A stretch of DNA of 64,000 bases, from NCBI GenBank assembly GCA_007132715.1, contig SLOE01000050.1, positions 4,640 through 68,639 on the forward strand, in the 5' to 3' direction. Numbering within the stretch: the first letter of the stretch is position 1; every line of letters begins with the position of its first letter. This document shows, in pieces, positions 9,574 through 35,051 of the stretch. The notes beneath the pieces are model-generated. The model did no database searches. It was not told the DNA's origin and worked only from the letters and a program-made list of their open reading frames with translations. Origin of the DNA: Bacteroidales bacterium. GTDB lineage: Bacteria; Bacteroidota; Bacteroidia; Bacteroidales; PUMT01. The position numbers and the translations under genes were made by a program.

Positions 9574-9574
9574 C

Positions 9575-10852
9575 ATGGATAATTTACAAGAATTGAGCAA
9601 AAGCGGGAATGAAGGAGAGGGTGCCCGAACGCTAGTTTCTGGTGGCCGGGATGAAATGTCCCCTGCTGCGGGCCGAAACGAAATGCAGAGTGCTGCCGCC
9701 CGGATTGAAGCAGGCGGCAATGCCTCCCGGCCGGAAAAAGCCGGTGAGCAGGCGAAAGGAACCTGCATAATTGAAGCCCCTGACGGCACATACGCCGGTG
9801 AACCCGGAGTCAAGATGATAATTGCCGGACCGTGCAGTGCCGAGTCGCCTGAGCAGCTCCTGGAAACGGCAAGGGCGCTGCAGCAGTGCGGCAATGTTGA
9901 TTATTTCAGGGCTGGATTGTGGAAGCCCCGTACCTCGCCCGACTCCTTCCAGGGAGTTGGTGAAAGGGGACTTGACTGGCTGGAGACTGTAAGGAAGGAG
10001 ACAGGCATAAAGGTGGCGACCGAGATTGCCTGCGAGAAGCATGTTGCCGCGGCCCTTAAGCATAACATCGACCTGTTGTGGCTGGGGGCCAGGACCGTAA
10101 GCAATCCTTTCGTGGTGCAGGATATTGCCGATGCGCTGCGGGGGACCGATATACCCGTACTGGTCAAAAATCCTCTCAACCCTGATATTGAACTATGGTA
10201 CGGCGCCATCAACCGCCTTCTTAAAGCCGGTGTAAAAGAGGTTGGTGCAATTCACCGCGGCTTTTCGGTATGGGGCAATCATATGTACCGTAACCAGCCC
10301 ATTTGGCGCATTCCCGCCGAACTCAGTGAGCGGATGCCCGGAATTACCATAGTGTGCGACCCGAGCCACATAGCGGGTAAAAGCAGCCTGGTGCCACTCG
10401 TGGCCGAAAGGGCGCTTGAGCATGGGGTTGGGGGACTGATGGTGGAGGTGCATCCCGACCCGCCCTCGGCAATGAGCGATGCCTCCCAGCAGCTTACACC
10501 TGCCGCTTTTGCCTCAATGATGAAGGAGCTGGACCTCGACAGGAAGGGATGTTGCAAAGATGCACCGGAACTTATTGATGAGCTCAGCTCAGAGATGGAT
10601 ATGGTGGATGAGCTGCTGGTTCATGCCATTGCCAGCAGGATGGAGCTTTCGCGGAAGATAGAGAGAATGGGACATGCAGGATCATCAAAGCCGTCCGCAG
10701 CCGAAAAGTCCGCCACCGGCGAACGTCTTGCCAACCTTGCAACGGGAGACGGACTGCGTCCCGGTTTTATCAGCAGGCTCTTCGGCGAGATAACCAGGGA
10801 GTCGGGAAAGCTCAAATATTCCGTTAGTACCGGTTTTAAAAACCGGATATAA
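9575..10852 (+). CDS. Bifunctional 3-deoxy-7-phosphoheptulonate (DAHP) synthase (class I-beta) / chorismate mutase type II-like C-terminal domain
   Basis: IIAGPCSAES, FRAGLWKPRTSP and CDPSH are DAHPS/KDOPS-type motifs, and the C-terminal helical segment resembles chorismate mutase. The ORF is open from 9515. I prefer the ATG at 9575, one base after the tyrA stop. There is an unusual low-complexity N-terminal extension of about 80 aa. Confidence 0.85.
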   Translation: MDNLQELSKSGNEGEGARTLVSGGRDEMSPAAGRNEMQSAAARIEAGGNASRPEKAGEQAKGTCIIEAPDGTYAGEPGVKMIIAGPCSAESPEQLLETARALQQCGNVDYFRAGLWKPRTSPDSFQGVGERGLDWLETVRKETGIKVATEIACEKHVAAALKHNIDLLWLGARTVSNPFVVQDIADALRGTDIPVLVKNPLNPDIELWYGAINRLLKAGVKEVGAIHRGFSVWGNHMYRNQPIWRIPAELSERMPGITIVCDPSHIAGKSSLVPLVAERALEHGVGGLMVEVHPDPPSAMSDASQQLTPAAFASMMKELDLDRKGCCKDAPELIDELSSEMDMVDELLVHAIASRMELSRKIERMGHAGSSKPSAAEKSATGERLANLATGDGLRPGFISRLFGEITRESGKLKYSVSTGFKNRI

Positions 10853-16788: not shown

Positions 16789-17817
16789 TCAGAAGGCTTT
16801 CGCCCCGGCAGAGGTGAGGCAGGAGCACAGGTCGTAAATGCTTGTGAACCTGGAAGTGCTGCCTTGCATCATTAATTTCCATGTTCTAGTCCCGCCTTCT
16901 ATATCGATGCTGACAGTGGCCCCGCACTCTTCATTTTCAGCTACCCTGAAACCGTTCCTTTCCAGGGCATTCCTTGTCCACCGCCGCTCCGTTGCTGGTC
17001 CCCGAAGACCTATGATTTCCCTCAGTTCCCGCTTTATCCGGAATTCGCCCTTTCCCGTGCTAAAGGAGAGGTTCGTATTTTCGAACATCCTGCCGAACTG
17101 ATCGTCAAGGATCAGGTCTTCCGGTGCCCCCTGGCAAATCTGGCCCGGCAGCATAAGCCATATTTTTGTGGCTTCCTGAATAGCTATGCTCAGATCGTGC
17201 GTGGAGAATATTATTGTCCGTCCCTTCTCAGCCGCAAGCCGGTGAAGAAGGTGAACAATCCCGTACTTGTTTGGAAGGTCTAGGAATGCGGTAGGTTCGT
17301 CGAGCACTATTATACCCGTATCCTGGGCCAGGGTGCGCGCAATCATGGCCCTTTGCCTCTCTCCGTCACTCAGCTGGTCAATGTTCTTGCCGGCCAGCCG
17401 TGATATTCCCACCATATCAAGTGCCTCGTCAACCTTAATATAGTCCTGCTCCCCGAGTCTCCCCAGCCAGCCCGTATGAGGATAGCGGCCCAGCGACACC
17501 AGGTCGCGGACTTTCAGGTTGTTCACCCGTACCGGTTCGGTCGAAACGAAGCCGACCATCCTGGCGATCTGGTTTGCCGGGTAGCTCCTTATATCAGAAC
17601 CGGATAAATATATATTCCCCGAAAGGGGGGAAAGCAGCCTGACAATACTGCGAAGCAGGGTACTCTTACCTATCCCGTTGGGTCCGAACAGAGCTACCAG
17701 CTCTGACCGGCGTGCATCAACGGTGATGCCTCCGAATACTGTGCCGGAGGATTCCCGGGCTCCCCTGTATCCCACGGACAGGTTCTCGGTATGCAGAACA
17801 GGTAGCTGGTCGCCCAT
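16789..17817 (-). CDS. ABC transporter ATP-binding protein (FecE/BtuD family) with a C-terminal extension of about 90 aa
   Basis: Walker A GPNGIGKST, signature LSDGERQR, Walker B IIVLDEPTAFLD. It lies downstream of the permease in the riboswitch-led cluster. Confidence 0.9.
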   Translation of the reverse strand: MGDQLPVLHTENLSVGYRGARESSGTVFGGITVDARRSELVALFGPNGIGKSTLLRSIVRLLSPLSGNIYLSGSDIRSYPANQIARMVGFVSTEPVRVNNLKVRDLVSLGRYPHTGWLGRLGEQDYIKVDEALDMVGISRLAGKNIDQLSDGERQRAMIARTLAQDTGIIVLDEPTAFLDLPNKYGIVHLLHRLAAEKGRTIIFSTHDLSIAIQEATKIWLMLPGQICQGAPEDLILDDQFGRMFENTNLSFSTGKGEFRIKRELREIIGLRGPATERRWTRNALERNGFRVAENEECGATVSIDIEGGTRTWKLMMQGSTSRFTSIYDLCSCLTSAGAKAF

Positions 17818-17821
17818 AGTA

Positions 17822-18877
17822 TCAGAATATTCCGGTTAGTTTCTGGTTACGTATTACTATCCATATCACGACGGGAATGCCAATAAGCGCGGTTACCGAG
17901 TTTATCGGAAGGCTCCCTTCCATAGCAGGCAGCCTGGAGACAATGTCGCTGGCAAGCAATACAGCAGCGCCCGTGAGGGCGGTGGCCGGCAGCAGCACGG
18001 CGTGGTCGGCATTCCTGAACATCATGCGCGCGAGGTGGGGAACAGCAATCCCAATAAACGCAATTGGCCCGCAAAAGGCGGTTATCGTTCCTGCCAGAAG
18101 ACTGGTGCTGACGAATATGATGATCCTCGCTGCAGTAATGTTCACGCCCAGGCTCCGTGCATAGTTCTCGCCAAGCAGCATCGTGTTGAGCATCTTGACC
18201 GAAGCGCCCGCGATAAGCAGTCCCCCAACAACAGCGGGAACCATTATGGCCAGCTGGGGGCCGGTTACACCGCCAAGGCTGCCCATGGTCCATATCATGA
18301 ATGACCTGAGCATGGTTTCGGTGCTGAAATACTGCATGACACTCACAAGGGCTCCCGTTGCACTGCCGAACATAATACCCAGTATCAGTATGGTCATGAT
18401 ATCGCGTACTCTGAAGCTCACCAGGAGGATAAGGACAAGCACGGCACCCGATCCGGCCCACGCCGCAATCACCACCAGCCAGTCCCCTCCCGCTGATACC
18501 ATATAACCCGGGATCAGGGTAAGGCCCATTACCACGACCGCTACGCCCAGGCTTGCTCCGGCACTTATTCCCAGCACGTAGGGGCCTGCCAGGGGATTCC
18601 GGAAGACGGTCTGCATCAGCAGCCCGCTGACTGACAAGCCGGCTCCCGCTACCAGGGCGGTAATTGCTCTCGGCAGCCTCAGGTCAGTTACAATTATGTG
18701 CCATTCAGGCCTTGATGCCTCTCCGCCTGAAAGGATAATGAATATATCGGCTAAAGGTATCCTGACCGTACCGGTCAGGATGCCGGCAAGGAATAGCAGC
18801 AGCACTGATGCCGACAGGGTTACTATCAGGATGATGGTTTTGTTGTTTCGCCGGTCAGGGTCTGACGGGGTTGTCAT
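17822..18877 (-). CDS. Iron-siderophore/cobalamin ABC transporter permease (FecCD/BtuC family)
   Basis: 351-aa polytopic membrane ORF with RLPRAITALVAGAGLSVSGLLMQ, typical of the FecCD family. Confidence 0.92.
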   Translation of the reverse strand: MTTPSDPDRRNNKTIILIVTLSASVLLLFLAGILTGTVRIPLADIFIILSGGEASRPEWHIIVTDLRLPRAITALVAGAGLSVSGLLMQTVFRNPLAGPYVLGISAGASLGVAVVVMGLTLIPGYMVSAGGDWLVVIAAWAGSGAVLVLILLVSFRVRDIMTILILGIMFGSATGALVSVMQYFSTETMLRSFMIWTMGSLGGVTGPQLAIMVPAVVGGLLIAGASVKMLNTMLLGENYARSLGVNITAARIIIFVSTSLLAGTITAFCGPIAFIGIAVPHLARMMFRNADHAVLLPATALTGAAVLLASDIVSRLPAMEGSLPINSVTALIGIPVVIWIVIRNQKLTGIF

Positions 18878-18987
18878 CAGTTAATTTTTGTTTACAATGT
18901 TGGGTTTTTTGTGTTGATGCCAATTGATGAAAAGATCATGTTTGTTTGTTTGTGATATATTCATTTACCGTATGGTTAATGATCCGG

Positions 18988-20177
18988 TCATTCCAGTTTC
19001 CTGTAATAGACCTGCTCGTGGTCCGGTAAAAGTTTTCTGTGAAATATCGACACCAGGTCAGCCAGTATTATATGGGGATTTACGATACCTGATTCCCAGT
19101 AATCATTCCCTCCGTAACGGTTGGTCCGGGCATTGTTGTTGTATATGTTTCCCGCTGCCAGAGGAGGCAGGGATCCCAGTCTGCTGTCGGTTCTTAATAT
19201 ATCGCCGGCAGATTGCGCCGTACCTGTATTTATCCAATAATCAGCCTGCCGTCCCCTGCTGATCACACTCTCTATATCGACAGGAAAGTTTTCCCTTCCC
19301 CTGTTGTCTTCCCATAAATACCTGCCCCCCGCATCACTTACCAATGATGCGAAATGGGATCTCCCTCCGGGCACGAACCAGCTTCCCCTCCATGGCAGCC
19401 CGCTCATGACAACGGGTGCAGTCTCTGCAGTGGCTGCAATGTGAGCCAGCTCAGCATACCTGTTTTCTATCCCGGCAAAAATACTGTCGGCCATTTCCTG
19501 CCTGTTAAAAAGATGAGCAATGAACCGGATCCATCCGGCCTGTTCCAGGGGAGTTTTTTCCAGGTATTCGCCAACCATCACCACGTTCATACCCAGTTCC
19601 GATAACCTGCCCAGCCATGCCATTGAACCGGCACCCACCCCATACGCGAGTATTACATCGGGGTTCAGCTCCAGGATCTTTTCATAGTCCAGGTTGTTGT
19701 CATAGCCGATATCCGGCAGTTCGCCGTTATCAATACGGTCTCTCAGGACCTGGTTGTAAACCAGTCCCCCGCCCGAAACAGCCGAGATGGATGCTGTCTC
19801 ACCTAAAAGGTCGATCATTGCGATATGTGTTGTTGACATGCATATAACGGACCTTGCAGGTGTGCGTATAACCGTGCCGGCGGGTATGTCTGCGGGCAGT
19901 TCTTTGTCACGGTCTGCCAGGATGTAGGTGAATATCTCGCTGCGGGCTCCCTGCCACGGGTTGTAAACGGAGAGGACCCTGTATAGCCCGCGGTCCGTTA
20001 CTCTAAATCCCCCGGCACCGGAAATATCACTGCTGTCACCTGCCGGTGCATAACTCTCCACCGGAATACCTTCTCTGCCGACTGGTTCGCTGTTACCGGG
20101 ACCTTCGGGTGAAGCGCACGCCTTGAGGAAAATCAGCAAGGCTGCAGCCAGGCGGAAAATATGTGCAATGCTATCAA
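18988..20177 (-). CDS. Periplasmic/lipoprotein substrate-binding protein of the ABC importer (BtuF/FecB-like, class 8)
   Basis: The ORF is open to 20304 and overlaps the upstream protease gene. A lipoprotein signal (FRLAAALLIFLKAC) suggests a later start, possibly the TTG at 20177. The start is uncertain. The body resembles cobalamin/siderophore binding proteins (PDVILAY...). Confidence 0.8.
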
Positions 20178-20257
20178 GCTGTGCCTTTGGCGCTGAGCCG
20201 GCAATCAGCCCGACTGTGGCAGGTCGGATAAGTTCAGCCTTATTCGCAGTATATGTC

Positions 20258-22399
20258 TTATCTGATGATCTGTACCCTGGTAGCGATATGTTCATCTCCT
20301 CCAATTATCTTCAGAATATAGGTGCCCGGTGGATATCTCTCTACATTGAGAACTATACTTCCGGCACCGGCATCTATCTTTTCCCGGGTCACCAGGCTTC
20401 CGCCTGATGAATATAACTCAATATGCAGGTCGATGTCAAAAACCTGCTCTGATTCAATGACAAGGTAGGTGTTTGCAGGAACGGGATATACCCTGATCCC
20501 GGTTTCCGGCTGCCGGGGCAGGAAATTCGGACTGAGGGTGATAATATGTTGAACCGTATCGGCACAGGCCCTGTTTCTGACCACCTGGCTGACAGTGTAC
20601 TGACCTGTTTGGGAATAGGTGTGTGCCGGCTCCTGCCGGGTGCTGGTCCGCCTGTCACCAAACTCCCAGTAGTAGGAGGCGGCATTCTCGGAAAGGTCCA
20701 GGAACGCAACCTCCAGTCCGTCCTGCGAATAGTTAAAGCCTGCACGGGGGATGTTCGTTGCGTTTACAGCCACCTCTATCTCAGTTTCCTTCTCATCAAT
20801 TTCTTCGGCCAATGCAACTGCAAGTTTAACCTTGCGTTTCCCTCCCTGATTGTAGGTTACAAAATGTGGTCCCCTGCTATCTGCCGTACGTGGTGATGCT
20901 CCGGTTCCGAAATCCCAGGCCCAGGTTTCGGGATTGCCGGTGGAAAAATCGGTAAAAACCACCCTGTCACCCTGGCATATCTCAGTGGTGTTGACCGTGA
21001 AGCGTGCTGACAGCTCTTCTTCTCCCCAGGGGTTCAGTCCCCCGACAATAACTGCATCTGTGCTGTCGGGGTCTAGCCAGGGCTGCAACCGGCTGTCCGT
21101 ACCTTCATACCTGTCCCATGCCAGCGAAAACTTGCAGTAAAAATCATCTACCGCATCTCCGCAGCGCGCATCACCGCCTGTCAGCAACCCCATCAGGGAG
21201 CCGTTCCGGTCGAACAGGGGGCTGCCTGAGGAGCCTCCCTCTGTGGTGCCGAGGTCCCATCGCCCTATGTGCCAGTGCCCGTTGGCTGTGTATCCACTCC
21301 CAAAAGTGGCGGTTACCGGCTGTTCAACAGATACGGCTATCTTTTTTACATCGCCGTTGGGGTGGTGAATTGATGTCACCGGAGCTGCAGGCGGATCGGG
21401 CGACCTGCTCCATCCGGCATACCAGGCATTGTAGGATTTAGGGGGTTTTTCATTTAACCTGACCAGCGTGAAGTCCAGGTTCTGCTGGGTGGCAAGCAGT
21501 TCTGACCCTGAAAGGCTCTGGTTTAGGGGACCGTCACTCCCGTTGCAGAAAGGACTCTCGTAACCGAAAAGGAAAACGGTGTTTGCGGCCCTGATGCTGT
21601 TATCAATGCAGTGATTTGCAGTGAGCAGGTAGGGAATGCCGTCATTGGCGCTGTTATTGACCAGAACACCTGTACAGAGCTGTATACCGTTTATTACAAG
21701 CCTGGCAACGGCATTTTTTTCAGTCTGTAGGTTGTCTCCAGTGGGACAGTTTATATCTATGTTGCATTTTCCCGAGAACCCGAACCTGCTGCTCTTAAGG
21801 TTATGTATGCCGATAAAATCATGGGCTACGGTTCCGATCTCCAGCTCCCCGTAATGGGTAGTTCCTTTTTGCATTTGCATCTCCACGATAATACGGTCAC
21901 CTTCCACGGGTGAAACTGCAAGAGTTCCGCGCAGCTGGTTATTCCGGTAGTCAAATGCACCCAGTACCTGGTTAAGCGAGGGAGAGTAAAGGAAAACAGA
22001 GGCTCCTTCAGCGAGGGTGAACCGGCTGAAAATAATGTTCAGTGAGTATGCGCCGGCTGACCTGATTGAGACCCTCCAGACCCTTCGTCCATCTGCAAGC
22101 TCCTCCCAAATCCCGTCTTTCAGGGGATCTATGCTCACCGAAAAAGGTTTTGCAAAAACAAGGGGTTTCAGTCCGTTATTATTATCCGGCTCCATATCGG
22201 AGATATACCGGGAAACGTCGAAGGCGGGCATCTCTATAACCGGCAGCCTGCCGGGGGACCTGAGGAGGGCGGCGGCGGGCTCTCCTCCATGGCTTATCTG
22301 CGTTGCAGCATCATAAACCGGCAGACAGGCAAGGATCACCACAACCAGCAATCTGACCGGCAGTGTGCAATGATATTTTCTCTTGCCCCGTTCTGTCAT
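20258..22399 (-). CDS. Secreted S1-family (lysyl-endopeptidase/trypsin-like) serine protease with two PKD domains and a T9SS C-terminal sorting domain
   Basis: LTANHC (His), GGSSGSPLF (Ser), two PKD-like repeats (WAWDFGTG..., YYWEFGD...) and a C-terminal tail VYPVPANTYLVIE...GTYILKI typical of a type A T9SS CTD. The ORF is open to 22450. The signal peptide favours the ATG at 22399. Confidence 0.85.
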   Translation of the reverse strand: MTERGKRKYHCTLPVRLLVVVILACLPVYDAATQISHGGEPAAALLRSPGRLPVIEMPAFDVSRYISDMEPDNNNGLKPLVFAKPFSVSIDPLKDGIWEELADGRRVWRVSIRSAGAYSLNIIFSRFTLAEGASVFLYSPSLNQVLGAFDYRNNQLRGTLAVSPVEGDRIIVEMQMQKGTTHYGELEIGTVAHDFIGIHNLKSSRFGFSGKCNIDINCPTGDNLQTEKNAVARLVINGIQLCTGVLVNNSANDGIPYLLTANHCIDNSIRAANTVFLFGYESPFCNGSDGPLNQSLSGSELLATQQNLDFTLVRLNEKPPKSYNAWYAGWSRSPDPPAAPVTSIHHPNGDVKKIAVSVEQPVTATFGSGYTANGHWHIGRWDLGTTEGGSSGSPLFDRNGSLMGLLTGGDARCGDAVDDFYCKFSLAWDRYEGTDSRLQPWLDPDSTDAVIVGGLNPWGEEELSARFTVNTTEICQGDRVVFTDFSTGNPETWAWDFGTGASPRTADSRGPHFVTYNQGGKRKVKLAVALAEEIDEKETEIEVAVNATNIPRAGFNYSQDGLEVAFLDLSENAASYYWEFGDRRTSTRQEPAHTYSQTGQYTVSQVVRNRACADTVQHIITLSPNFLPRQPETGIRVYPVPANTYLVIESEQVFDIDLHIELYSSGGSLVTREKIDAGAGSIVLNVERYPPGTYILKIIGGDEHIATRVQIIR

Positions 22400-22494
22400 T
22401 TTCCAAAAGTACATGATTTTTGCATCATTTGAATATCCCATGAACGTCAAACCTTGCGTGCCAAATCGACGAGACGAGATAAGTTCTTCCCGTC

Positions 22495-23574
22495 CTAGCG
22501 TTGCCCGAAAGCCATAACCCGTGGCGCAATGCCCGTATTATATGTTTCTTCCTGATCATCGTCATTAAAAATATGCAGTTTCCCCGGTGAAGTATAATCA
22601 GTGATCTCAAGGGTGAAAAAACGGCCGGTTGAGGGGCATGTTGCTGCATAGGAGAAATTCTCCGGCAACATGGGTTCAGATGGCTGAACCTGACTGTCAA
22701 TACTCATTGAATATACGCCTCCAGCTTCTCCGTAATAGAGAGTTCCTCCGTCAGCAGAAACTGAGAGCCATGAGGGGTTGAAACCGTCACCTGTAGTTCC
22801 GATCACCACGCTGCGGTCCGCCTTCAAAGTCACCGGATTGATTCGTACAAGCCTGGAATCGGTCTCTTCAATTATTTCCGTCCAGGTCTCATTGTACACC
22901 ACCTTGCCCCTTGAAAGGACCCAGACGTTATTGTCGCGGTCGGTTACAAGCGCTACAGGGATATCGCCGGCCTCAACGGTGGCAACCACCTCATTACTGC
23001 GGGTGTCGATTACCGACACCGTGTTGTCGAATGCCCAGCCTCCACTGTTGGCAACATACAGGTGGTTGCCGGCCACCACCATCTGTTCCGGCCCCATTCC
23101 GACATCGATGGTATCGGTAATTATTCCGCTTTCCAGCTCAATACTGTATACGTGACCGTCAAGGTTGCCGTTTGAAAGGTAGCCGGATCCCTTCCCTGTA
23201 TAAGCGAAATACCTTGGATATGTAAAACCTGTTATGGTAGAAATCGATTCAAAGGTTACCAGGTCAACCACTTCGATCTTCTGCGAGTTGTTGGCCACTA
23301 TTACTCCAAGATCTCCGGCCAGGGTAAAGGATTGTACCACATCGCCGGCAGGCCGGCCGTTGACATGTTCAAAGAGGTTGTTCACGACTATGTTGGAGTC
23401 GGGGTCGTACCAGCTTATAGAGCCGTTGCTGGCGTTGAAGGCCCCTTCACAGGCTATGAATACTCCCCTTGCATAGCCTTCCCGCCGGGGGGTATCATCC
23501 TCTTTTTCACACGAGATAAAAAATATCGTACCTGCAGCTAACATGAAATTTAGCATTGTTTTTCTGAGATCCAT
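22495..23574 (-). CDS. Surface lipoprotein, YncE-like beta-propeller (possible corrinoid-capture accessory protein)
   Basis: Lipoprotein signal (FFISCEKEDD). The protein has repeated beta-strand blades (VANNSQKIEVVD, LYVANSGG, VSVIDTRSNEV). It lies immediately downstream of the riboswitch-controlled TonB-dependent receptor. Confidence 0.65.
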   Translation of the reverse strand: MDLRKTMLNFMLAAGTIFFISCEKEDDTPRREGYARGVFIACEGAFNASNGSISWYDPDSNIVVNNLFEHVNGRPAGDVVQSFTLAGDLGVIVANNSQKIEVVDLVTFESISTITGFTYPRYFAYTGKGSGYLSNGNLDGHVYSIELESGIITDTIDVGMGPEQMVVAGNHLYVANSGGWAFDNTVSVIDTRSNEVVATVEAGDIPVALVTDRDNNVWVLSRGKVVYNETWTEIIEETDSRLVRINPVTLKADRSVVIGTTGDGFNPSWLSVSADGGTLYYGEAGGVYSMSIDSQVQPSEPMLPENFSYAATCPSTGRFFTLEITDYTSPGKLHIFNDDDQEETYNTGIAPRVMAFGQR

Positions 23575-23668: not shown

Positions 23669-25729
23669 TCAGTCTGCATCGTTGTAGCCAAGTGTAAATC
23701 CAAGGTGGAAAGTGCGTCCCGGCATCGCATAGGATCTGATCACCTGGTACTGTTCATTGAAAAGGTTCATCACCCTGAGCTGAACCATTCCTGAAATACC
23801 CCAAAGCTTCACATTGTATCCTCCCCATGCGTTAAAAACCCTGAATGGCGGCATCATGTGCAGGGGATTGTTGTCACTTGTCGTGTGCCTGCTGCCAGTG
23901 TAGTTGGCGGTGATTCCGAGATAGCCTTTTCCTGAACCGGCATTGAGGCTTATTGAGCCGCTGTGCGGAGGCACGTACCTGAGGTGTTTCGGACTGTTTT
24001 CGCTGTTTTCCGGATGAAGGCTTTCCACCAGTGACTTTGCATAGTTATAGCCGGCCCTGACGCCGTAGTGCAGATCACCTGTACTTCCGCCGGCTGACAC
24101 CGAAGCTTCCAGACCTCTGACATTAACCAGATCCCGGTTCTCCGGGTACCACCAGCTGTTATTGCCGCTGGGTACCCATTGTATCATGTTTTTTAACCGT
24201 GACCTGTATATGCCTGTTTCAGCCTTAAGGTGCAGGTGCTGACTGCTGAGAAGCACCGCCGACAGACCCACATCGGCAGAATATCCTGTTTCGGGAAGGA
24301 GGTCCGGGTTCCCGCCCGGATACCAGTATTTGTCATTGAAAGTGGGAACCCTGAACTGGTCTGAGTAGCTTGCAATAACCGAAAGCCAGCCGGGAGGCAG
24401 CCTGTACCTGGCGCCTGCAGAAAGAAGAACCGGTATATCGATACCGGGGTGATACTCCTTTCTTGCCGAGGTGTTGACAGTCAGTGCCGGCAGGGCCAGC
24501 TTGAGAGCGGTGACCGCTGCTGTCCTGTACTCGGCCGGTTGCCTGACATAATTTTCCGCCCCGGCTGAAAGTGCCGAGAAGATGACACCGCCATCGACCG
24601 ACAGATGATCTGTCAACCATACACGGTAGCTTGCATCACCCATATAACGCCTGGTTGTTATCTCTGAGACAGGACCAGCGATGCCGGAAGCGTTCCGGCT
24701 GCCGTTATCCCAGACCATGGTCTCGTCAAATATTGCCGTATTGACTGAAAGAACGGACCTGTGCCATATTTTTGACCATTTTGCGTATCCCCTGACTGAA
24801 TTGTCGCCCTGCACGGCACTGGCAGGAAGGTATGAACCCATAATTGCCGGAAGCTGTTTCTCCCGCACCTGGTACCACAGGCCTGCTTCAATAATGTTGC
24901 CGCGGGGCAGTCTCAGAAACAGGTTCTGTATGGTACCCCTGTTGTCGAGTGCATTATTGGCAATGGTTTCGCGGGGATTGCCCGGTTTGTAAATATCTGT
25001 GTAGCGGAAATCGTTTACAGCCTGGTGTGAGAATATGTTAAGGTGATATTGTACCCGGGGACTGCCAAATCTGCCGGCTACCGAATAGTGGCGGTTGTCA
25101 TATGAGCCCAGTTCACTCCTTACCTCTGTCCGCACCCTGTTGTTCCAGTCCGCCCTGTTCCCCAACAGGATCGCTCCACCGGTATTACCGCTGCCGGCAA
25201 TGCTCCCGGCAGCACCGTATACCACTTTGATTTCGTCGGCGGCCGAAACCGGCACCAGGGATAGGTCTGCCATGCCAAGGGTAAGGGAATTGAGTACGAA
25301 ACCGTTCCAGGATATGGCGGACTGGTATGAGTTTGTGCCGCGCAGGAACAGGGAGGCTGCTGAACCCGAGCTTCCGGGGGTATTTATATAGGCCGTGGTG
25401 AATGCCGGCAACAATGTGCCTAGATCGCTGCCTGTGAGTGCACGCGTTGAAATGGAGTCGGGTTCGGCTGACCTTTTGTCCTCATGAAAGAATGAACTGC
25501 GGTGCTCTTCTATAATAACCTCGTTAATATGAAGCAGCATGAGGCTGTCGGCGCCGGCCGCTGTACTCTTGGATACTTCTTTAATTTCCGGGACATCTGT
25601 TTCCGGGACACCTGTTGCCGGAATACCGTATGCCGGATTGCCTGGTACAGGCAATGAGATGATCATAAATATGCAAAAAGAGAATAACGTGGTTTTCAAA
25701 CCGGAAAAATTATGTTTAACCCCGAACAT
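23669..25729 (-). CDS. TonB-dependent outer-membrane receptor, BtuB-like
   Basis: Plug-domain motif LFLRGTNSYQSAISWNGFVLNS, a beta-barrel with a terminal aromatic-rich strand, and a cobalamin riboswitch directly upstream. Confidence 0.9.
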   Translation of the reverse strand: MFGVKHNFSGLKTTLFSFCIFMIISLPVPGNPAYGIPATGVPETDVPEIKEVSKSTAAGADSLMLLHINEVIIEEHRSSFFHEDKRSAEPDSISTRALTGSDLGTLLPAFTTAYINTPGSSGSAASLFLRGTNSYQSAISWNGFVLNSLTLGMADLSLVPVSAADEIKVVYGAAGSIAGSGNTGGAILLGNRADWNNRVRTEVRSELGSYDNRHYSVAGRFGSPRVQYHLNIFSHQAVNDFRYTDIYKPGNPRETIANNALDNRGTIQNLFLRLPRGNIIEAGLWYQVREKQLPAIMGSYLPASAVQGDNSVRGYAKWSKIWHRSVLSVNTAIFDETMVWDNGSRNASGIAGPVSEITTRRYMGDASYRVWLTDHLSVDGGVIFSALSAGAENYVRQPAEYRTAAVTALKLALPALTVNTSARKEYHPGIDIPVLLSAGARYRLPPGWLSVIASYSDQFRVPTFNDKYWYPGGNPDLLPETGYSADVGLSAVLLSSQHLHLKAETGIYRSRLKNMIQWVPSGNNSWWYPENRDLVNVRGLEASVSAGGSTGDLHYGVRAGYNYAKSLVESLHPENSENSPKHLRYVPPHSGSISLNAGSGKGYLGITANYTGSRHTTSDNNPLHMMPPFRVFNAWGGYNVKLWGISGMVQLRVMNLFNEQYQVIRSYAMPGRTFHLGFTLGYNDAD

Positions 25730-25740
25730 CTGTAACAGGA

Positions 25741-25930
25741 TCTGGCAGGTCTTCTGACTTACTCCCCTTCAGGACGCCTTCCCATTGCCGTAAACGGCAA
25801 CAGTGGCAAGAATGCCCTGAAGGATTGACGGAGATTACAGCAGCGGGTACTGTCCGGGATTCTCACCCGGTTCCCTTTTCATCCCGTTTGCAGGAAGTTG
25901 CAAGCAGGAACCAATCCTGATGCAAATATA
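25741..25930 (-). promoter_or_regulatory. Cobalamin (adenosylcobalamin-type) riboswitch
   Basis: The minus-strand sequence contains GGUUCC...AAAAGGGAACCGGGUGAGAAUCCCGGACAGUACCCGCUGCUGUAA...GCCACUG...GGGAAGGCG...AGUCAGAAGACCUGCC (B12 box). It ends about 12 nt before the receptor ATG at 25729. Confidence 0.9.
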
Positions 25931-26032: not shown

Positions 26033-28060
<2,028 letters not shown>

Positions 28061-28138
28061 GGTTTTTCAATTTTGCAGATGTAGCCCGCATATTTTTTGT
28101 TATTATTGTGTTTTAATACCGAATAAAGCAATCTGAAA

Positions 28139-28690
28139 GTGTTTTTGGAAAGAATAAGGAAAAGAACAGGTGTTTTTCTGCTTGGAAGGAAGCTCAGGAA
28201 GCTGAAGCGCAACAAACAGTTTGTCAACCTGGCCGACGCCGGTAATGTTGGAATACTGTTTCAGCCGGCGGCAACCGGAAGCTTTGATGCCGTTCATGAA
28301 TTTGTGCGAAGGCTCGAGGGAGAAGGAAAGAAGGTTTTTGTGCTCGGTTATGTGGACGGTGAAAAGGTACCCGACCAACTGCTGCTGAGGAAAAGCTACC
28401 AGTTCTTCTGCCGCAGTGACCTCAACTGGCACTTCAGGCCCGAACCGGAGTTTGTAAACGAATTTATTGAGAGGGAGGTTGATATCCTTATGAACCTGAG
28501 TTTTGACGATATCTTCCCACTGGAGTACGTTCATGCTCTTTCAAGGGCAAGGTTCAAGACCGGAAGGTTCAGGGAAAACAACGACAGGACAGACCTGTCT
28601 ATCGATGTCCGCAACAACAGGGACACTGGATATCTTATTGAGCAGATAACCCATTATCTGCAGATAATTAACAGGAAACAAGAATATTAG
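28139..28690 (+). CDS. Hypothetical protein (conserved-looking, function unknown)
   Basis: 183-aa ORF with a GTG start that ends 3 nt before dapA. I recognised no motif. Confidence 0.5.
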   Translation: MFLERIRKRTGVFLLGRKLRKLKRNKQFVNLADAGNVGILFQPAATGSFDAVHEFVRRLEGEGKKVFVLGYVDGEKVPDQLLLRKSYQFFCRSDLNWHFRPEPEFVNEFIEREVDILMNLSFDDIFPLEYVHALSRARFKTGRFRENNDRTDLSIDVRNNRDTGYLIEQITHYLQIINRKQEY

Positions 28691-28693
28691 ATT

Positions 28694-29611
28694 ATGTCGA
28701 AGAAATTATTTCAGGGAACAGGGGTGGCTGTTGTTACTCCTTTCAGGGATGACGAAAGCATCGATTTTGCATCGATGGGAAAAGTAATTGAACACCTCAT
28801 TGAAGGAAAAGTGGAATACATTGTGGCACTGGGTACTACCGGCGAATCGGTGACCCTGAACCAGGATGAGAAAGCTGCTGTGATAAATTTTGTGCTTGAA
28901 AAGGTCAATAACCGGGTTCCAGTGGTTATGGGTGTCGGCGGCAACAACACCCATGAAGTGGTAAGTGCCGTACAGTCCGTTTGCGATGAGAACCTGCCGC
29001 TGGCCGGCATCCTCTCTGTTTCACCCTATTACAACAAGCCCACCCAGGAGGGTATTTATCTCCATTATAAAAAGGTTGCCACCGCCTCAAGTCTCCCGGT
29101 TATCATTTACAACGTTCCCGGCCGCACGGGCCAGAACATTACGGATGAAACCACTGTCAGGCTGGCCCGGGATTGCAGGAACATAGTCGCCACCAAGGAA
29201 GCTTCCGGAGATCTCAACCAGATCAATTACATACTTAAGAACAAACCAAAGGATTTCATGGTGATATCGGGCGATGACCAGCTCACCCTGCCCATGATAG
29301 CCCTCGGTGCATCAGGTGTCATTTCGGTTTCTGCCAATGCATTCCCTTTTGAATTTTCAGAAATGGTAAGGCTTGCACTGAAAGGAAAGTTCAGGAAGGC
29401 ACAGGCATACCAGAATGCCTTGCTTGATCTGATGAACGCACATTTCGTTGAGGGAAATCCAGCAGGTGTGAAAGCCAGCCTGAACATCAGAAAACTGATT
29501 CATAACAACCTCAGGATGCCCCTGTGCAAGGTTTCCACACCAACCTACAACAAGATCAGGTCACTTATCGAGGAGCTGGATGGTATCAAGAAGAGCCTGT
29601 CCGCCGGCTGA
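28694..29611 (+). CDS. dapA: 4-hydroxy-tetrahydrodipicolinate synthase
   Basis: 305-aa ORF with GTGVAVVTPF, GTTGES, IIYNVPGRTG and ATKEASG (Schiff-base lysine). Confidence 0.95.
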   Translation: MSKKLFQGTGVAVVTPFRDDESIDFASMGKVIEHLIEGKVEYIVALGTTGESVTLNQDEKAAVINFVLEKVNNRVPVVMGVGGNNTHEVVSAVQSVCDENLPLAGILSVSPYYNKPTQEGIYLHYKKVATASSLPVIIYNVPGRTGQNITDETTVRLARDCRNIVATKEASGDLNQINYILKNKPKDFMVISGDDQLTLPMIALGASGVISVSANAFPFEFSEMVRLALKGKFRKAQAYQNALLDLMNAHFVEGNPAGVKASLNIRKLIHNNLRMPLCKVSTPTYNKIRSLIEELDGIKKSLSAG

Positions 29612-29636: not shown

Positions 29637-31658
29637 CTAATCCAGGTACCTGGCAAGCCAGTCCAGGAACTCATTATACCAGAACAGGGAGTTCTGGGGT
29701 GACAATATCCAGTGGTTCTCATCAGGATAGTATATAAGCCTGGCATCCAGACCCATTCTCTTGTATATACCATATACCAGCAGTCCGTGACCCACAGGCA
29801 CCCTGTAGTCAAGCTCGCCGTGGATTATCAGCATCGGTGTGCTGAAATTGTGTGCGAACATGGCAGGGTTTGCCTCCATCAGTCTGTCGAAATCTTCCCA
29901 TGGCGATCCGCTGTACTGGTGCGGACGGTACCAGGTGTAGTCGGTCGAAAACTGCATGTGGATATTGTAAACCCCTGCATGATTGACCAGGCACGCGTAC
30001 CTGTCGGTGTGCCCTGCTATCCAGCTTACCATGTAGCCGCCGTATGAGCCGCCGGTTGCTGCCATACGTGTCTCGTCAATAAAGCCCCTTCCGGTCATAT
30101 AGTCGGTTGCCTTCATTATATCCCTGAATGGCAGTTCTGCATGAGAACCGTGGATTGACTGTGCAAACTCCTGGCCGAAACTTGTTGAACCGTGAAAGTT
30201 GGGCAATGCCATAACATATCCCGGTTCAGCGAAGAGGTGGGCGTTCCACCTGTAGTGCCACTGATCGCCGAATATGCTGTGGGGGCCACCATGTATCATC
30301 AGTACCAGTGGATATTTTTTGTCCGGGTCAAAATCAGGCGGATAGACAATATACATCTGTATGTCAGCTCCGTTTGCCCCTTTATAGGTTACGTTCTCGA
30401 TATTGCCAAGCTTTATGGCGTCCAGTACATCTTTGTTGACAGATGTCAACTGTCTTGCGTTACCTCTCCTCTGCCGGGTGATATAGATATCGGCGGGACT
30501 GTTCAGGTTGTCGTGAGTGAATATGATCTCTCCCCCCGGGGTGACTTGCAGGTTATTGTTGTTGCCCTCATCAAACAGGATGGTGTGGGCTCCTCCGCCG
30601 GAAGGAATTGAGAACAGGGGCTTTTTTGCCTGATGCTGCGCATGGAAGAATATTGTACTGCCATCGTGCGACCATTGCCACTGTTCACATGAGAGATCTA
30701 TATCTGCCGTAATATTGCGGTGTGTTTCGTTTCCCCTGTCGTATACAACCATCTGAATATTATCGGCATAGAAATCAGCCTGGTTCTGCCTGCCGTAAAG
30801 TATCAGCGAGCCACAGGGACTGTATACAGGGTTGGTATCGTCGGCAGGATTGTGGGTGGTTATGTTCCTCATCTCACCGCTGCCGTCGGCCGGCAGCAGG
30901 AATATGTCGTAGTTCAGTTTTTCGAACGGTTCGGGTATGCTGTTCATAGATACCGCGATCTCGCTGCCGTTTGGAGAAATATCGTATGACACACCGCCCA
31001 TCATGGCAAAATAGTTTTGAGTGCCGGGCATCAGGTCAGTTACCTCGCCCGATTCTATATCGACAGAGAACAGACGCGGGTAAAACCCATCGGTCAGCCA
31101 TCTGTCCCAGAACCTGTACATCACGTTCTCGGTCACCTTTGCGGTTACCTTGCTCTCCCTCTGTTTTTTGATTATCTCTTCAAGCTTTTCGAAGCATCCG
31201 TTGTAGTCTGGGTGTATATTGGCGGCAAACGAGATTCTTTTACCATCCGGGAACCATTTGGGTGCGAACACGCCTACCGGTAACCGGGTGATTCTCCGTG
31301 CTTCGCCCAGGCCGTCTTCCATGATGTAGATCTGGGCAGGTATGCCGTCTCTGCGGCTCACAAAACCAATATGCTTGCCTTCGGGGCACCAGAATGGTGC
31401 AGATTCCCTGCCTGTAAAGGTAAGCTGGCGTTTCTCGCCGCTTTCGTTGTTCAGGAGGTATATAAAAGTAGAGGCTTCATTTGTTTCAATATCATATCCT
31501 GTTAGTGTAAAAAGTGTGCGGCTCCCGTCAGGAGACACCACGGGTGCACCTGCCCGGCGCATCTGCCAGAGATGTTCGGCGGTAAACCCGTCAGGATTCA
31601 TACCTCTTGCAGCCAGGACGAACGCTGCACTAATGAGCAGAACAGTTATTTTCTTCAT
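29637..31658 (-). CDS. S9 family serine peptidase (prolyl oligopeptidase/acylaminoacyl-peptidase-like), secreted
   Basis: 673-aa ORF with a signal peptide, an N-terminal beta-propeller region, the nucleophile elbow GGSYGGYM and a C-terminal GELDYRVP...H. Confidence 0.9.
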   Translation of the reverse strand: MKKITVLLISAAFVLAARGMNPDGFTAEHLWQMRRAGAPVVSPDGSRTLFTLTGYDIETNEASTFIYLLNNESGEKRQLTFTGRESAPFWCPEGKHIGFVSRRDGIPAQIYIMEDGLGEARRITRLPVGVFAPKWFPDGKRISFAANIHPDYNGCFEKLEEIIKKQRESKVTAKVTENVMYRFWDRWLTDGFYPRLFSVDIESGEVTDLMPGTQNYFAMMGGVSYDISPNGSEIAVSMNSIPEPFEKLNYDIFLLPADGSGEMRNITTHNPADDTNPVYSPCGSLILYGRQNQADFYADNIQMVVYDRGNETHRNITADIDLSCEQWQWSHDGSTIFFHAQHQAKKPLFSIPSGGGAHTILFDEGNNNNLQVTPGGEIIFTHDNLNSPADIYITRQRRGNARQLTSVNKDVLDAIKLGNIENVTYKGANGADIQMYIVYPPDFDPDKKYPLVLMIHGGPHSIFGDQWHYRWNAHLFAEPGYVMALPNFHGSTSFGQEFAQSIHGSHAELPFRDIMKATDYMTGRGFIDETRMAATGGSYGGYMVSWIAGHTDRYACLVNHAGVYNIHMQFSTDYTWYRPHQYSGSPWEDFDRLMEANPAMFAHNFSTPMLIIHGELDYRVPVGHGLLVYGIYKRMGLDARLIYYPDENHWILSPQNSLFWYNEFLDWLARYLD

Positions 31659-32157: not shown

Positions 32158-32330
32158 CCCGGTCAGGGACGGTAATACAATACCCTGGTTCGGGAAATGC
32201 AAATCAGCGCCCCGGTAGAGGACTGCAGGTTAGCGGCCCTGTTACAGGACCGTAACTCTGTGTCCCGGTACAGGACTGCAAGACAGCAATCCTGGTAAAA
32301 ATAGCGTCATCTCCCCTGGTAGGGCACCCC
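32158..32330. repeat. Degenerate tandem array of about 7 units with a period of about 27 nt, consensus CCC(T)GGTAnAGGACnGnAA
   Basis: Units start at 32158, 32183, 32210, 32237, 32264, 32291 and 32314. The last unit overlaps the final codons (..VPYQGR*) of the 914-aa peptidase gene. Confidence 0.5.
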
Positions 32331-35051
32331 GTATTTAATCCAGTCCGCCGCCTCATGCCCTTTCAGGTGATGGTCAAAGTACTCCTTCATCCTGATTGTA
32401 TAGTCAACCTTGTTGGGGTACTTCTGCGGGTGATGCGGCTCGTCGCGGTACTGCAGGAAGATGATATCCTTCCCGGCGCGCCGCATTGCAAGATACAGTT
32501 CGATGGACTGCTCCCAGGGGACCGCCTCGTCCACATCGCCGTGCATTATCAGCAGGGGCGTATTTATCTCGTGGGCATAGAAGAGCGGCGAGTTTTCTAT
32601 ATAGAGGTAGCGCCGGTCAAACAGCGATGAACCGAGCCTGCTCTGACCGGTCTCATACTGGAACTGCCTTGCAAGTCCGCTTCCCCACCTGATGCCGCCA
32701 TATGCGCTTGTCATGTTCGAGACAGGGGCACCTGCTATTGCAGCCCTGAAGATATCGGTCTGGGTCACCACATAGGCTGTCATATACCCGCTCCATGAAT
32801 GGCCGTGCAAACCGATAGCGTCAGGGTCGGCTATACCCATATCAATAAGTTTCTGCACACCCGGAACCAGCGCGTTTACGGCCGACATACCGGGACGCCC
32901 GGCCTTGAAGTGAATATCGGGCAGGAATATCACGTATCCGTTGCTGGCATAATACCCGAACGAGGGGCGGTGGTTTATTACGGTCTGGTTGAAATCATGC
33001 AGCCTTTGCGAAAACTGCTCATAATAGTAAACAAATACCGGGTATCTTTTGGAAGGGTCGTAATCGCCCGGTTTGATAACAATACCGTCAAGCGGCACCC
33101 CGTCTGCCGATGTAAAAGAGATGAGCTCTGCCGTTCCCCAGTTGAACTCACTGGTCTGCCTCCCCAGATCCGACACCTTTACCGTGTTCCTGAAACGCCT
33201 GCCGGTAACCCACAGGTCTGGGAACTCATCATAGGATTCGCGGGTATACACTATGGTCTGCCCGTCTTCCGAAAGAAGCCTCAGCCGGAGGTTTCTCCCC
33301 TCGTCAAGAAGCAGGTTAACACCCTGCCTGTCGGCCCTGAGCGACCATATTGACCTCTCCTTGGTGTTCTCGTTGTACCCTTCGGCAAAGAGCATCTCGC
33401 CGCGGGCAATAAGAGGTTCACCATCAAGTCTCCTGATCCTGAATACAGTTTCGGTTTTCCTGCCTTCGCCGCCTGTTATGTTTACCATGTTGCCGGTACG
33501 CAGATTTGCCCTCCAGATATCATACCTGTCATATATCAGGATCGATTCCCCGTCATCCAGCCAGCCTGCCGTCCTGTAGCTGCCGGGTTCGGCCGGGCGG
33601 TCCATCGTTTCATTGTAGAAAGGAACATCGATATTTTCAGTCAGGTTCATGACCCTGCCCGCAGATACATCATATGAATGCCAGTGTTTATTGTCAAAAT
33701 GGATCAGGTAACGGCCGTTAGGCGACAGGGCCGCCATATCCTGGTGTTCCTCTGCTATCAGTGTTCTCTCCCCGTTTATCAGGTTTACCAGGTATATGTC
33801 CCTGAACCGTCCCTCCCAGGTTATTCTTTTCGCATAGGGAAGTGAGGAGGAGGCAAGTGCATGATCGCCTCCCCTGGGGGTGATCAGATCAGGCACATCT
33901 TCGTTGGCCAGCGGCACCAGCCTGTTCTCTCCGATGTGATATACGGCTGCCAGATTCTGCCTTCTCGCCTGGTTCCACTGGATCTTTTCATGTGTCTTGA
34001 TAAGCGGGTCATCGCCGTGCCAGATGTCGATATCCGCCTGCTGACTTATCGAATCGAGCACAGATATGTATTCTTTTTTTTCTTCTGGCTGGGCGGCAAA
34101 CCGGTCCGGCCTGAAACCGAAGAAAAGTCTCCTGCCGTTGCCGTTCCAACGCAGGTTGTTGTCATATGGCAGATACATGCCTTCAGGGGCATCCTCCTGT
34201 CCGGCGACCAACATTAGAACGCTGCCCGGCTCCCACACATGAAATGCCGCAGTTTCAAGGGTGTCCTTTTCCAGGTCTTCCGCTCTCATAAGGGCCAGGC
34301 GCCGTTCGCTCTCATGCCAGGTGAAGCTGCCGTACTTAGCTTTCCCCGTAGTGTCTATCACAGCGGGAGGTGCAGCGAGGTTGGCAAGAGAAAGGCTGTA
34401 AAGTCCGTTATTTACCTCCAGGGTGTCGCTGACGGTAAAAACCAGCGTGGTGGAGAGGCTGTCGACAGTATACGATTCCACAAAAGGCAGTGTTACCTCC
34501 CTGTTGTTCCCGAAGTCTTTTACCAGCAGCGGGGTGCCGGCCTTCTTCATCCTGTCATTCTGGTCTTTGTTAAGCGTGGTGTCCTCAACAGCATGGTAGT
34601 GCACAAAAAGGTAGCTGTGCAGTGTGCTGAAGGAGGCTCTTCTGACATCGTCAAAAGCGGTAGTTGAGCCGTCTGCCGTTCTTATCAGCACCGCTGTATT
34701 ATTTGGTCTCTCTGAGGCGGATTTGCCTTCTGTGCAGGCAAGGTGCGGCACCTGGATGAACAGCACCTTTTCCCCGTTTGCAGCGAAAGCGGGTCTTGTA
34801 CCACGGTCGACAATATATTCAGGGTCACCTGCGGCAGAGATGAGCACTCCGTATCCGTCGCCACGGTCGGGCGAAACTGCATAGGCAACCCATTTGCCGT
34901 CATGGCTTACTGCCGGCGACTGCATATGGTGAAAATTCATTATGTCTTCCAGCGTCATGGCTCGTCTTTCCTGTGCGGTAAGGCTGAGTGCCAGAATAAA
35001 AACAACCGGCAGCAAAATACCGGGTTTAAAAAGTTTACTGCTGTTAATCAT
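32307..35051 (-). CDS. S9 family serine peptidase with an extended N-terminal propeller region, secreted
   Basis: 914-aa ORF with a signal peptide, the nucleophile motif GHSWSGYM and a C-terminal HGDVDEAVP...H. Confidence 0.9.
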   Translation of the reverse strand: MINSSKLFKPGILLPVVFILALSLTAQERRAMTLEDIMNFHHMQSPAVSHDGKWVAYAVSPDRGDGYGVLISAAGDPEYIVDRGTRPAFAANGEKVLFIQVPHLACTEGKSASERPNNTAVLIRTADGSTTAFDDVRRASFSTLHSYLFVHYHAVEDTTLNKDQNDRMKKAGTPLLVKDFGNNREVTLPFVESYTVDSLSTTLVFTVSDTLEVNNGLYSLSLANLAAPPAVIDTTGKAKYGSFTWHESERRLALMRAEDLEKDTLETAAFHVWEPGSVLMLVAGQEDAPEGMYLPYDNNLRWNGNGRRLFFGFRPDRFAAQPEEKKEYISVLDSISQQADIDIWHGDDPLIKTHEKIQWNQARRQNLAAVYHIGENRLVPLANEDVPDLITPRGGDHALASSSLPYAKRITWEGRFRDIYLVNLINGERTLIAEEHQDMAALSPNGRYLIHFDNKHWHSYDVSAGRVMNLTENIDVPFYNETMDRPAEPGSYRTAGWLDDGESILIYDRYDIWRANLRTGNMVNITGGEGRKTETVFRIRRLDGEPLIARGEMLFAEGYNENTKERSIWSLRADRQGVNLLLDEGRNLRLRLLSEDGQTIVYTRESYDEFPDLWVTGRRFRNTVKVSDLGRQTSEFNWGTAELISFTSADGVPLDGIVIKPGDYDPSKRYPVFVYYYEQFSQRLHDFNQTVINHRPSFGYYASNGYVIFLPDIHFKAGRPGMSAVNALVPGVQKLIDMGIADPDAIGLHGHSWSGYMTAYVVTQTDIFRAAIAGAPVSNMTSAYGGIRWGSGLARQFQYETGQSRLGSSLFDRRYLYIENSPLFYAHEINTPLLIMHGDVDEAVPWEQSIELYLAMRRAGKDIIFLQYRDEPHHPQKYPNKVDYTIRMKEYFDHHLKGHEAADWIKYGVPYQGR

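Follow-up and report, generated by a model that had tools for sequence, protein, structure and literature searches.

The vitamin B12-uptake (Btu) loci of Bacteroides thetaiotaomicron provide the closest described counterpart of the gene cluster analysed here, which lies in a stretch of 64,000 nucleotides (nt) from a Bacteroidales bacterium (contig SLOE01000050.1 of assembly GCA_007132715.1; hereafter the window) and which includes, among genes for corrinoid capture and import, a gene for a putative lysine-specific protease. B12 is a scarce nutrient for which microbes compete, and current models of its acquisition in Bacteroidota, which involve BtuB, BtuG, BtuH, BtuJ and BtuFCD, comprise binding and transport proteins only. 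In B. thetaiotaomicron, B12 riboswitches repress expression of the locus about 70-fold (PMC6143338). The window cluster shares with the Btu loci of this species the riboswitch leader, the BtuB-BtuG pair and a probable BtuFCD-type importer, and its sister loci in other genomes carry DUF4465 proteins, which form the B12-binding BtuJ family. The two differ in their accessory proteins, which are non-enzymatic B12-binding lipoproteins in B. thetaiotaomicron and, in the window, a predicted T9SS-secreted hydrolase (T9SS, type IX secretion system). An original prediction, made on this DNA from its letters alone, had noted that proteases are not known to be part of the described Bacteroides btu loci; indeed, the literature on BtuG, BtuH, BtuJ and the BtuBG complexes, together with a 2026 review, describes binding and transport and names no protease or peptidase as a locus component. 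A limited literature search found no lysyl endopeptidase, serine protease or T9SS cargo tied to a B12 locus. The gut Bacteroides Btu loci studied so far contain no such protease gene, which may explain why such a component was overlooked.

The protease itself has known relatives. Its catalytic domain is homologous to those of Achromobacter protease I (API) and Lysobacter Lys-C (MEROPS S1; 1arb, 4nsv), with which it has in common the catalytic triad, the Asp at the bottom of the S1 pocket and Cys positions; the likeness extends to a long N-terminal pro-region ending where mature Lys-C starts and to the presence of a C-terminal extension. Unlike in API and Lys-C, this extension consists of two PKD domains and a T9SS sorting domain and the gene is located inside a B12-uptake operon; moreover, His210 of API is a Thr in the window protease. 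Among the Bacteroidota enzymes of this type that have been studied by experiment, the nearest, likened here by description and not among the listed matches, is PepK (PG0553/PGN_1416) of Porphyromonas gingivalis, a Lys-specific serine endopeptidase with a C-terminal domain (CTD), secreted by the T9SS and anchored to the cell surface, for which, differently from the window protease, no link with B12 uptake is reported (PMC4674972). Activation of PepK requires Arg-gingipain. A further parallel is Lys-gingipain (Kgp) of the same organism, a T9SS-secreted Lys-specific protease that acts upstream of a tetrapyrrole-binding surface lipoprotein, HmuY, and a TonB-dependent receptor, HmuR, and supplies this haem system (PMC12094164). 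The parallel does not go beyond analogy: Kgp belongs to the cysteine proteases (C25) and is not homologous to the window enzyme, and the ligand is haem, not a corrinoid. The kgp gene is not known to be encoded within the hmu operon. The window protease adds a new member to an enzyme family already known, and the operon that contains it represents a Btu locus of the Bacteroidota in a new variant.

The cluster is composed of the following elements:

25727..25930, minus strand: cobalamin riboswitch aptamer, RF00174 (Rfam cmscan)
23669..25729, minus strand: BtuB-like TonB-dependent receptor (Pfam Plug and TonB_dep_Rec_b-barrel)
22495..23574, minus strand: BtuG-like surface lipoprotein, DUF5074 beta-propeller (Pfam, PDB sequence match)
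20258..22450, minus strand: protease open reading frame (ORF), likely start ATG 22399
18988..20295 (ORF to 20304), minus strand: BtuF-like substrate-binding lipoprotein (Pfam Peripla_BP_2)
17822..18877, minus strand: BtuC-like permease (Pfam FecCD)
16789..17817, minus strand: BtuD-like ABC ATPase, final gene of the cluster (Pfam ABC_tran)

The elements are arranged head to tail on the minus strand, from the riboswitch through the receptor, the propeller, the protease and the BtuF-like and BtuC-like proteins to the BtuD-like ATPase; Rfam, Pfam and NCBIfam searches gave the same order as the original prediction. The gaps, which that prediction had put at 110 bp or less, measure 94, 95, about -38 (an overlap), 110 and 4 nt in cluster order. 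The stop codon of the protease gene (20258-20260) falls, as was also claimed, within the ORF of the binding protein (18988-20304). When ATG, GTG and TTG are considered, the only canonical starts that provide the binding protein with a signal peptide are ATG 20295 and TTG 20304, giving overlaps of 38 and 47 nt with the protease gene, respectively; apart from these, no canonical start precedes the putative signal and lipobox (...LLIFLKAC), and ATG 20295 is the likely start of the BtuF-like gene. The gene following the ATPase is convergent, so the cluster stops at the ATPase. A promoter and terminator scan, whose sigma-70 promoter component is uninformative for Bacteroidota, found no terminator-like site in the minus-strand intergenic spacers of the cluster. 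Since the genes share one strand, are separated by no more than 110 nt, overlap at the protease/btuF junction and have no terminator-like site in their spacers, the cluster can be read as an operon, whose genes would be co-transcribed.

The identity of the cluster is defined mainly by its first elements. The riboswitch matches the whole of the model (1-189) with 102.4 bits and E 1.7e-24, the gathering score being 31.5. For the receptor, the best PDB sequence matches are BtuB chains (8p97_A, 8p98_A, 8bmx_C and 8blw_A; E about 3e-22) and the top NCBIfam match is TonB-B12, under its cutoff; for the propeller, which matches DUF5074 with E 2.7e-16, they are BtuG chains (8p97_B, 8bmx_D; E 2e-32). 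The closest solved relatives of the window pair are thus the B. thetaiotaomicron complexes. By inspection, the N-terminus of the propeller protein (FFISC-EKEDD) can be read as a lipobox Cys with an acidic signal for surface export behind it. The three importer-type proteins have Peripla_BP_2 (E 9e-20), FecCD (E 1.4e-72) and ABC_tran domains, and all equivalog scores are below cutoff: the top NCBIfam match of the permease is BtuC (214 bits), and the ATPase matches FecE and corrinoid ABC ATPase models. The PDB matches of the binding protein are weak and limited to haem and iron binders; it is, as far as homology searches reveal, a class III binder without a close solved relative, and therefore the B12 assignment of this protein and of the ABC part is based on context. 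Because of the riboswitch and of a receptor and a propeller that match both chains of the Bacteroides BtuB-BtuG complexes, the cluster is classified from its sequence as a Bacteroidota-type corrinoid-uptake locus.

The organization of the protease is as follows:

22301..22399, minus strand: protease start and signal peptide, residues 1-33 (inspection)
21782..22300, minus strand: N-terminal prodomain (residues 34-206), composed of a beta-sandwich and, after it, a disordered linker
21020..21781, minus strand: catalytic domain, residues 207-460 (phmmer, Foldseek)
21611-21613, minus strand: His263, triad residue equivalent to API His57
21473-21475, minus strand: Asp309, triad residue equivalent to API Asp113
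21227-21229, minus strand: Ser391, triad residue equivalent to API Ser194
21143-21145, minus strand: Asp419, residue of the S1 (lysine) pocket, equivalent to API Asp225
20534..21007, minus strand: two PKD domains, residues 465-546 and 555-622 (Pfam; two beta-sandwiches in the AlphaFold model)
20258..20497, minus strand: T9SS type A C-terminal sorting domain, residues 635-713, and stop codon (Pfam, NCBIfam)

The original prediction had reported the gene as the ORF 20258-22450. The feature is real, but its 730-aa frame from TTG 22450 is probably too long: the start at ATG 22399, giving a protein of 713 aa (MTERGKRK...), is preferred because it provides a normal signal peptide and a length that matches the homologues (695-720 aa). 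The Sec signal peptide recognized by inspection, MTERGKRKYHCTLPVRLLVVVILACLPVYDAAT, stands ahead of Q34, which is invariant in the family alignment. Comparison with PDB by phmmer gave 4nsv, 4nsy and 1arb as best matches (E 1.2e-38 over residues 207-459), and since the alignment begins exactly at Gly1 of mature Lys-C, which corresponds to residue 207, residues 34-206 represent the pro-region. The AlphaFold (AF2) model, with a mean predicted local distance difference test (pLDDT) score of 84, above 90 at residues 80-200 and below 50 at residues 203-210, shows a beta-sandwich prodomain, a linker containing Lys202, the protease domain, two Ig-like domains and the CTD. Foldseek superposes the model on 4nsv/1arb with a target-normalised TM score of 0.89, a root-mean-square deviation of 2.1 A and 36% identity. 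The active-site motifs LTANHC (His) and GGSSGSPLF (Ser), on which the earlier assignment to lysyl-endopeptidase-type enzymes had been founded, are both present, and His263, Asp309 and Ser391 are invariant across alignments of 26 and 79 sequences. Asp419, whose API counterpart Asp225 confers lysine specificity, is likewise invariant in the family alignment. Pfam recognizes Trypsin_2, two PKD stretches (PKD and PKD_4) and Por_Secre_tail; the latter (PF18962) scores 34.1 bits against a cutoff of 27, and TIGR04183 30.8 bits against 23, so that the two PKD domains and the type A T9SS CTD already proposed are borne out. On these sequence and model grounds, the protein can be regarded as a bona fide pre-pro-enzyme of the lysyl-endopeptidase (Lys-C/API) type with a T9SS tail, and it would be specific for lysine.

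The gene order is maintained in relatives. All eight close relatives that were sampled (41-60% identity) keep it; seven of them have the riboswitch, and in the eighth (L083, 57% identity), the sole locus from a metagenome-contig scan with the single protease protein, the contig begins after the riboswitch position, with the 5' end cut and the protease-BtuFCD part kept. The order BtuB-BtuG-protease-BtuF-BtuC-BtuD is found in L001 and L002 (60% identity) and in L084-L089 (41-54%). The riboswitches of L001 and L084-L089 were identified by nhmmer, in L084 and L089 also by Rfam, and in these seven loci the riboswitch-led cluster adjoins a divergent ligA gene.

More distant homologues (32-47% identity) were collected in a one-genome-per-species scan as 80 loci, annotated by tblastn and blastp with the window proteins and, for riboswitches, by nhmmer and Rfam; 65 of them were assessable, with the protease ORF intact over its full length and 1.5 kb or more of sequence downstream. 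A BtuF-like gene follows on the same strand in 21 of these 65 loci, at a distance of 200 nt or less in 18. Protease and btuF genes overlap in eight loci, by 4 nt in six and by 1 nt in two, and such start/stop overlaps argue for translational coupling of the two. Several architectures occur upstream of and around this pair. The arrangement riboswitch-BtuB-BtuG-protease-BtuFCD is present in L007, L010 and L033 and, with an inserted TPR gene, in L078; in four other loci (L037, L038, L041 and L053) the riboswitch is followed only by a DUF4465 (BtuJ) gene, and then by the protease and BtuFCD. L006 has riboswitch, BtuBG and protease without an importer, and L052 riboswitch, TonB-dependent receptor, protease, TPR gene and BtuFCD. 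btuFCD is the most constant partner of the protease, ahead of the riboswitch, and two strains in culture, Mariniphaga sediminis SY21 and Prolixibacter bellariivorans ATCC BAA-1284, also possess the protease-btuFCD unit. According to a neighbour-joining tree, copies with the linkage occur throughout the Bacteroidales/Marinilabiliales-type part of the family, and a basal clade of Flavobacteriales, Ignavibacteria and Zixibacteria type has none. The synteny survey that the original prediction had recommended thus found the linkage conserved in all the close relatives and in about a third of the distant ones, in several architectures; the refuting outcome named by that prediction, a linkage kept by no relative, did not materialize.

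The adjacency has outlasted deep divergence, changes of neighbourhood and swaps of the upstream capture module, and is hard to explain without functional coupling; retention of a gene while the partner module is rearranged is the usual signature of such coupling. On comparative sequence grounds, the protease gene can be regarded as an accessory component, kept by conservation, of the corrinoid-uptake operons of Bacteroidota that have a T9SS and are mostly environmental. Among the B12-linked homologues, the triad and Asp419 are invariant in all 24, and the prodomain, the catalytic domain with its active site and the CTD are constant, whereas the middle portion can be PKD, a fasciclin domain or nothing. 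Since linked members keep only these three parts, catalysis, and not PKD, is the conserved feature. The PKD domains were also considered as the B12-relevant part of the protein, a proposal ruled out by the linked homologues with a fasciclin domain or no middle domain.

Other features of these loci were observed. The location beside a divergent ligA-DUF6913-dapA group (26054-29611 in the window) is shared by L001, L084-L089, L041, L059, L060 and L066, and is occupied, depending on the lineage, by riboswitch-BtuBG-protease-FCD, riboswitch-BtuJ-protease-FCD or bare protease-FCD, so that the capture module seems to have been exchanged at this very site; for L041, L059, L060, L066 and the window, the ligA call relies only on an ORF of 666-668 aa at the equivalent position. 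A large TPR-repeat protein (1031-1219 aa) lies between protease and btuF in L052 (12222-15317), L078 (5538-9197) and L045, where a 1042-aa ORF after the protease was assigned to this group by size and position; it may be a further accessory component. In several relatives a small conserved ORF of about 90 aa (MASIRxLKKD...NH...) is located between the btuF-like and btuC-like genes:

L041, 13266-13538: ORF of about 90 aa
L045, 16535-16819: ORF of about 90 aa
L052, 16466-16747: ORF of about 90 aa
L059, 12675-12947: ORF of about 90 aa
L060, 12842-13114: ORF of about 90 aa
L066, 12881-13153: ORF of about 90 aa
L086, 11458-11727: ORF of 89 aa, grouped by position and size, with no precomputed Pfam hit

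The window has no such ORF; its btuF-btuC gap (18878-18987) measures just 110 nt. In L026 (8959-9844), two Haem_bd (PF14376) genes stand divergently upstream of the protease, possibly another tetrapyrrole link; the corresponding pattern of ORF sizes (-137/-156/-129 aa) recurs, as sizes only, in L054, L057, L019, L027 and L032, and the loci with this pattern are of Prolixibacteraceae type, btuFCD-linked or not. The riboswitch-led locus L006, devoid of btuFCD, has a 98-aa ORF with a GIY-YIG nuclease domain between the BtuG and protease genes (9485-9781), and L038 contains a DUF805 RNA motif (Rfam, 68 bits; 5848-5913) about 3 kb upstream of the cobalamin riboswitch, before small ORFs. More peptidases may lie near the locus: the window ORFs 29637-31658 and 32307-35051 (673 and 914 aa) match, by size and synteny, the S9 prolyl-oligopeptidase and tricorn-like genes found beside the locus in L001 and L084.

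Regulation of the cluster was approached through the riboswitch and through two motif matches:

25923..25930, minus strand: TATATTTG, promoter motif of the Bacteroidota -7 type, located on the 5' edge of the aptamer (sequence inspection)
22404..22411, minus strand: TACTTTTG, candidate -7 promoter motif internal to the cluster, 5 nt ahead of the protease start codon

The 3' end of the aptamer abuts the start codon of the receptor, ATG 25729, and no terminator-like hairpin is found in the interval between aptamer and ATG; for this reason, the riboswitch probably controls translation initiation of the first gene. An effect on the downstream genes, and with it a B12-dependent expression of the protease, would follow from the operon structure. 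The motif TAnnTTTG occurs 201-263 nt upstream of the called receptor start in six of eight loci, the window included, at a position consistent with the 5' edge of the riboswitch; the promoter is predicted from this motif match, and a combined -33/-7 pattern search gave no match near the cluster.

Taken together, the data suggest a role for the protease in the release of corrinoids. The enzyme would be made as a pre-pro-enzyme, exported by the Sec machinery and carried by the T9SS to the cell surface or released, in conditions of B12 scarcity that allow expression of the riboswitch-led operon. Outside the cell it would cut proteins that hold corrinoids, such as B12-dependent enzymes and corrinoid proteins of lysed cells or the B12 binders of other organisms, and BtuG at the cell surface, or BtuJ in other lineages, would capture the freed cofactor, which would then pass through BtuB and be imported by BtuFCD. 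The substrates would accordingly be corrinoid carrier proteins. Dietary B12 release in animals likewise requires proteases. This proposal, namely that an active, T9SS-displayed protease of the Lys-C family frees corrinoids from carrier proteins for Btu uptake, is put forward tentatively, with a confidence that stops somewhat short of the halfway mark. The broader statement that B12 scavenging by T9SS-bearing Bacteroidota includes a dedicated, operon-encoded extracellular Lys-specific protease, which either frees carrier-bound B12 or sheds the cell's own binders, is judged just on the probable side.

Some observations weigh against corrinoid release by a B12-regulated protease. Because the aptamer abuts the first start codon, direct control by the riboswitch may reach btuB only, with any downstream effect arising through polarity. 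The spacer between BtuG and the protease carries TAnnTTTG in four of the eight close-clade loci, against an expectation of about 0.03 per spacer, and together with the match 5 nt before the window ATG this makes an internal, B12-independent promoter of the protease possible; the spacers before the protease in the other riboswitch-led loci mostly have no such motif. If functional, TACTTTTG would generate a transcript that has a very short leader or none and does not depend on the riboswitch. Eleven protease-BtuFCD loci (L022, L029, L039, L042, L048, L049, L054, L057, L059, L060 and L066) have no riboswitch within 10 kb upstream, where no B12 biosynthesis or salvage genes were seen among the upstream genes, which encode esterase, acetate kinase, PTA, transglutaminase, LacI and YidC. 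Approximately two thirds of the family members have no B12 genes within 10 kb, among them proteins of Marinifilum and Ancylomarina (L003-L005) that share the PKD architecture, and therefore the enzyme family as such is not B12-specific. Finally, gut Bacteroides import B12, even from intrinsic factor, without a protease (PMC6143338).

Some of these observations also favour an alternative according to which the secreted enzyme serves general nutrition or housekeeping, is expressed from a promoter of its own and has no specific part in B12 uptake, its adjacency to btu genes being inherited genomic baggage. Most homologues are indeed unlinked and located in varied neighbourhoods, unrelated to B12; TAnnTTTG is found just upstream of many stand-alone or riboswitch-less copies as well as of the window copy; and one contig bears both a linked copy (L007) and an unlinked paralogue (L034), which calls for caution about any B12 role. 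However, the adjacency persists at 32-47% identity despite changed flanks and a changed upstream B12 module, the 1-4 nt overlaps tie the protease to btuF, and in four loci only BtuJ stands between the riboswitch and the protease. With few btuF genes per genome, chance adjacency to btuF would be expected about once in 1000 per locus. A purely general protease is thus considered unlikely.

Corrinoid release can also be compared with an alternative that shares its enzyme and changes its substrate, in which the protease clips the cell's own lipid-anchored BtuG or BtuJ, or other surface proteins, generating soluble 'corrinophores' that return B12 to BtuB. Where a gene for a surface B12-binding lipoprotein is present, the protease is always beside it, the binder being BtuG in the window, L001 and L007 and BtuJ in L037, L038, L041 and L053, and both proteins are expected at the cell surface. 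The window BtuG has a Lys two residues past its lipid Cys (C-E-K-E-D-D), and Lys-gingipain sheds the lipoprotein haemophore HmuY in a similar manner (PMC12094164). Conversely, in 11 protease-btuFCD loci neither BtuG nor BtuJ is encoded next to this unit, a Lys close to the lipid Cys is common in the surface-export signals of Bacteroidota and hence weakly informative, and the sequence reveals no specific cleavage site. Shedding is given a still smaller chance than a general protease.

The last two alternatives do without proteolysis of a carrier. Known accessory proteins are B12 binders with beta-sandwich or Ig-like domains (PMC13616437, PMC8941943) and the modelled prodomain is a beta-sandwich, so the protein might act as a non-catalytic, displayed corrinoid reservoir like BtuH and BtuJ, with the prodomain or PKD domains holding B12; but the triad and the S1 Asp are strictly conserved in every linked member, the PKD domains are dispensable, the prodomain is common to unlinked members and, when modelled alone, gave no B12-binding fold among the Foldseek top 50, only weak, generic CUB/CBM-like matches, and Pfam detected neither a DUF4465 jelly-roll nor a BtuH-type C-terminal B12-binding domain in the protease, all of which makes this reading very improbable. 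Least credible is an amidase acting on the corrinoid itself, cutting the aminopropanol-propionamide bond or side-chain amides to remodel unusable cobamides outside the cell: the only points in its favour are that amide bonds are hydrolysed by serine endopeptidases and that enzymes for cobamide remodelling exist, but the active site and S1 pocket are of the standard lysine-specific endopeptidase type and common to unlinked paralogues. Given the strict conservation of the active site and the lack of a detectable B12-binding fold, the binder and amidase readings have essentially no support.

Release of corrinoids from carrier proteins by the protease is a plausible role. The recurrence of a secreted, lysine-cutting protease in B12-uptake operons of many environmental Bacteroidota points to digestion of proteins as a possible, so far undescribed part of B12 scavenging by bacteria. 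If true, this would be the first enzymatic 'pre-digestion' step described in bacterial vitamin uptake, paralleling gastric and pancreatic proteolysis in B12 absorption by animals and gingipain-assisted haem capture, and would represent a new functional class among vitamin-acquisition systems. The conservation of an operon-encoded protease implies that much of the environmental corrinoid is protein-bound and needs enzymatic release; the pool of B12 regarded as bioavailable in sediments and other anoxic habitats would then be larger, and the widespread, unstudied family of T9SS Lys-C-like proteases would gain a physiological role.

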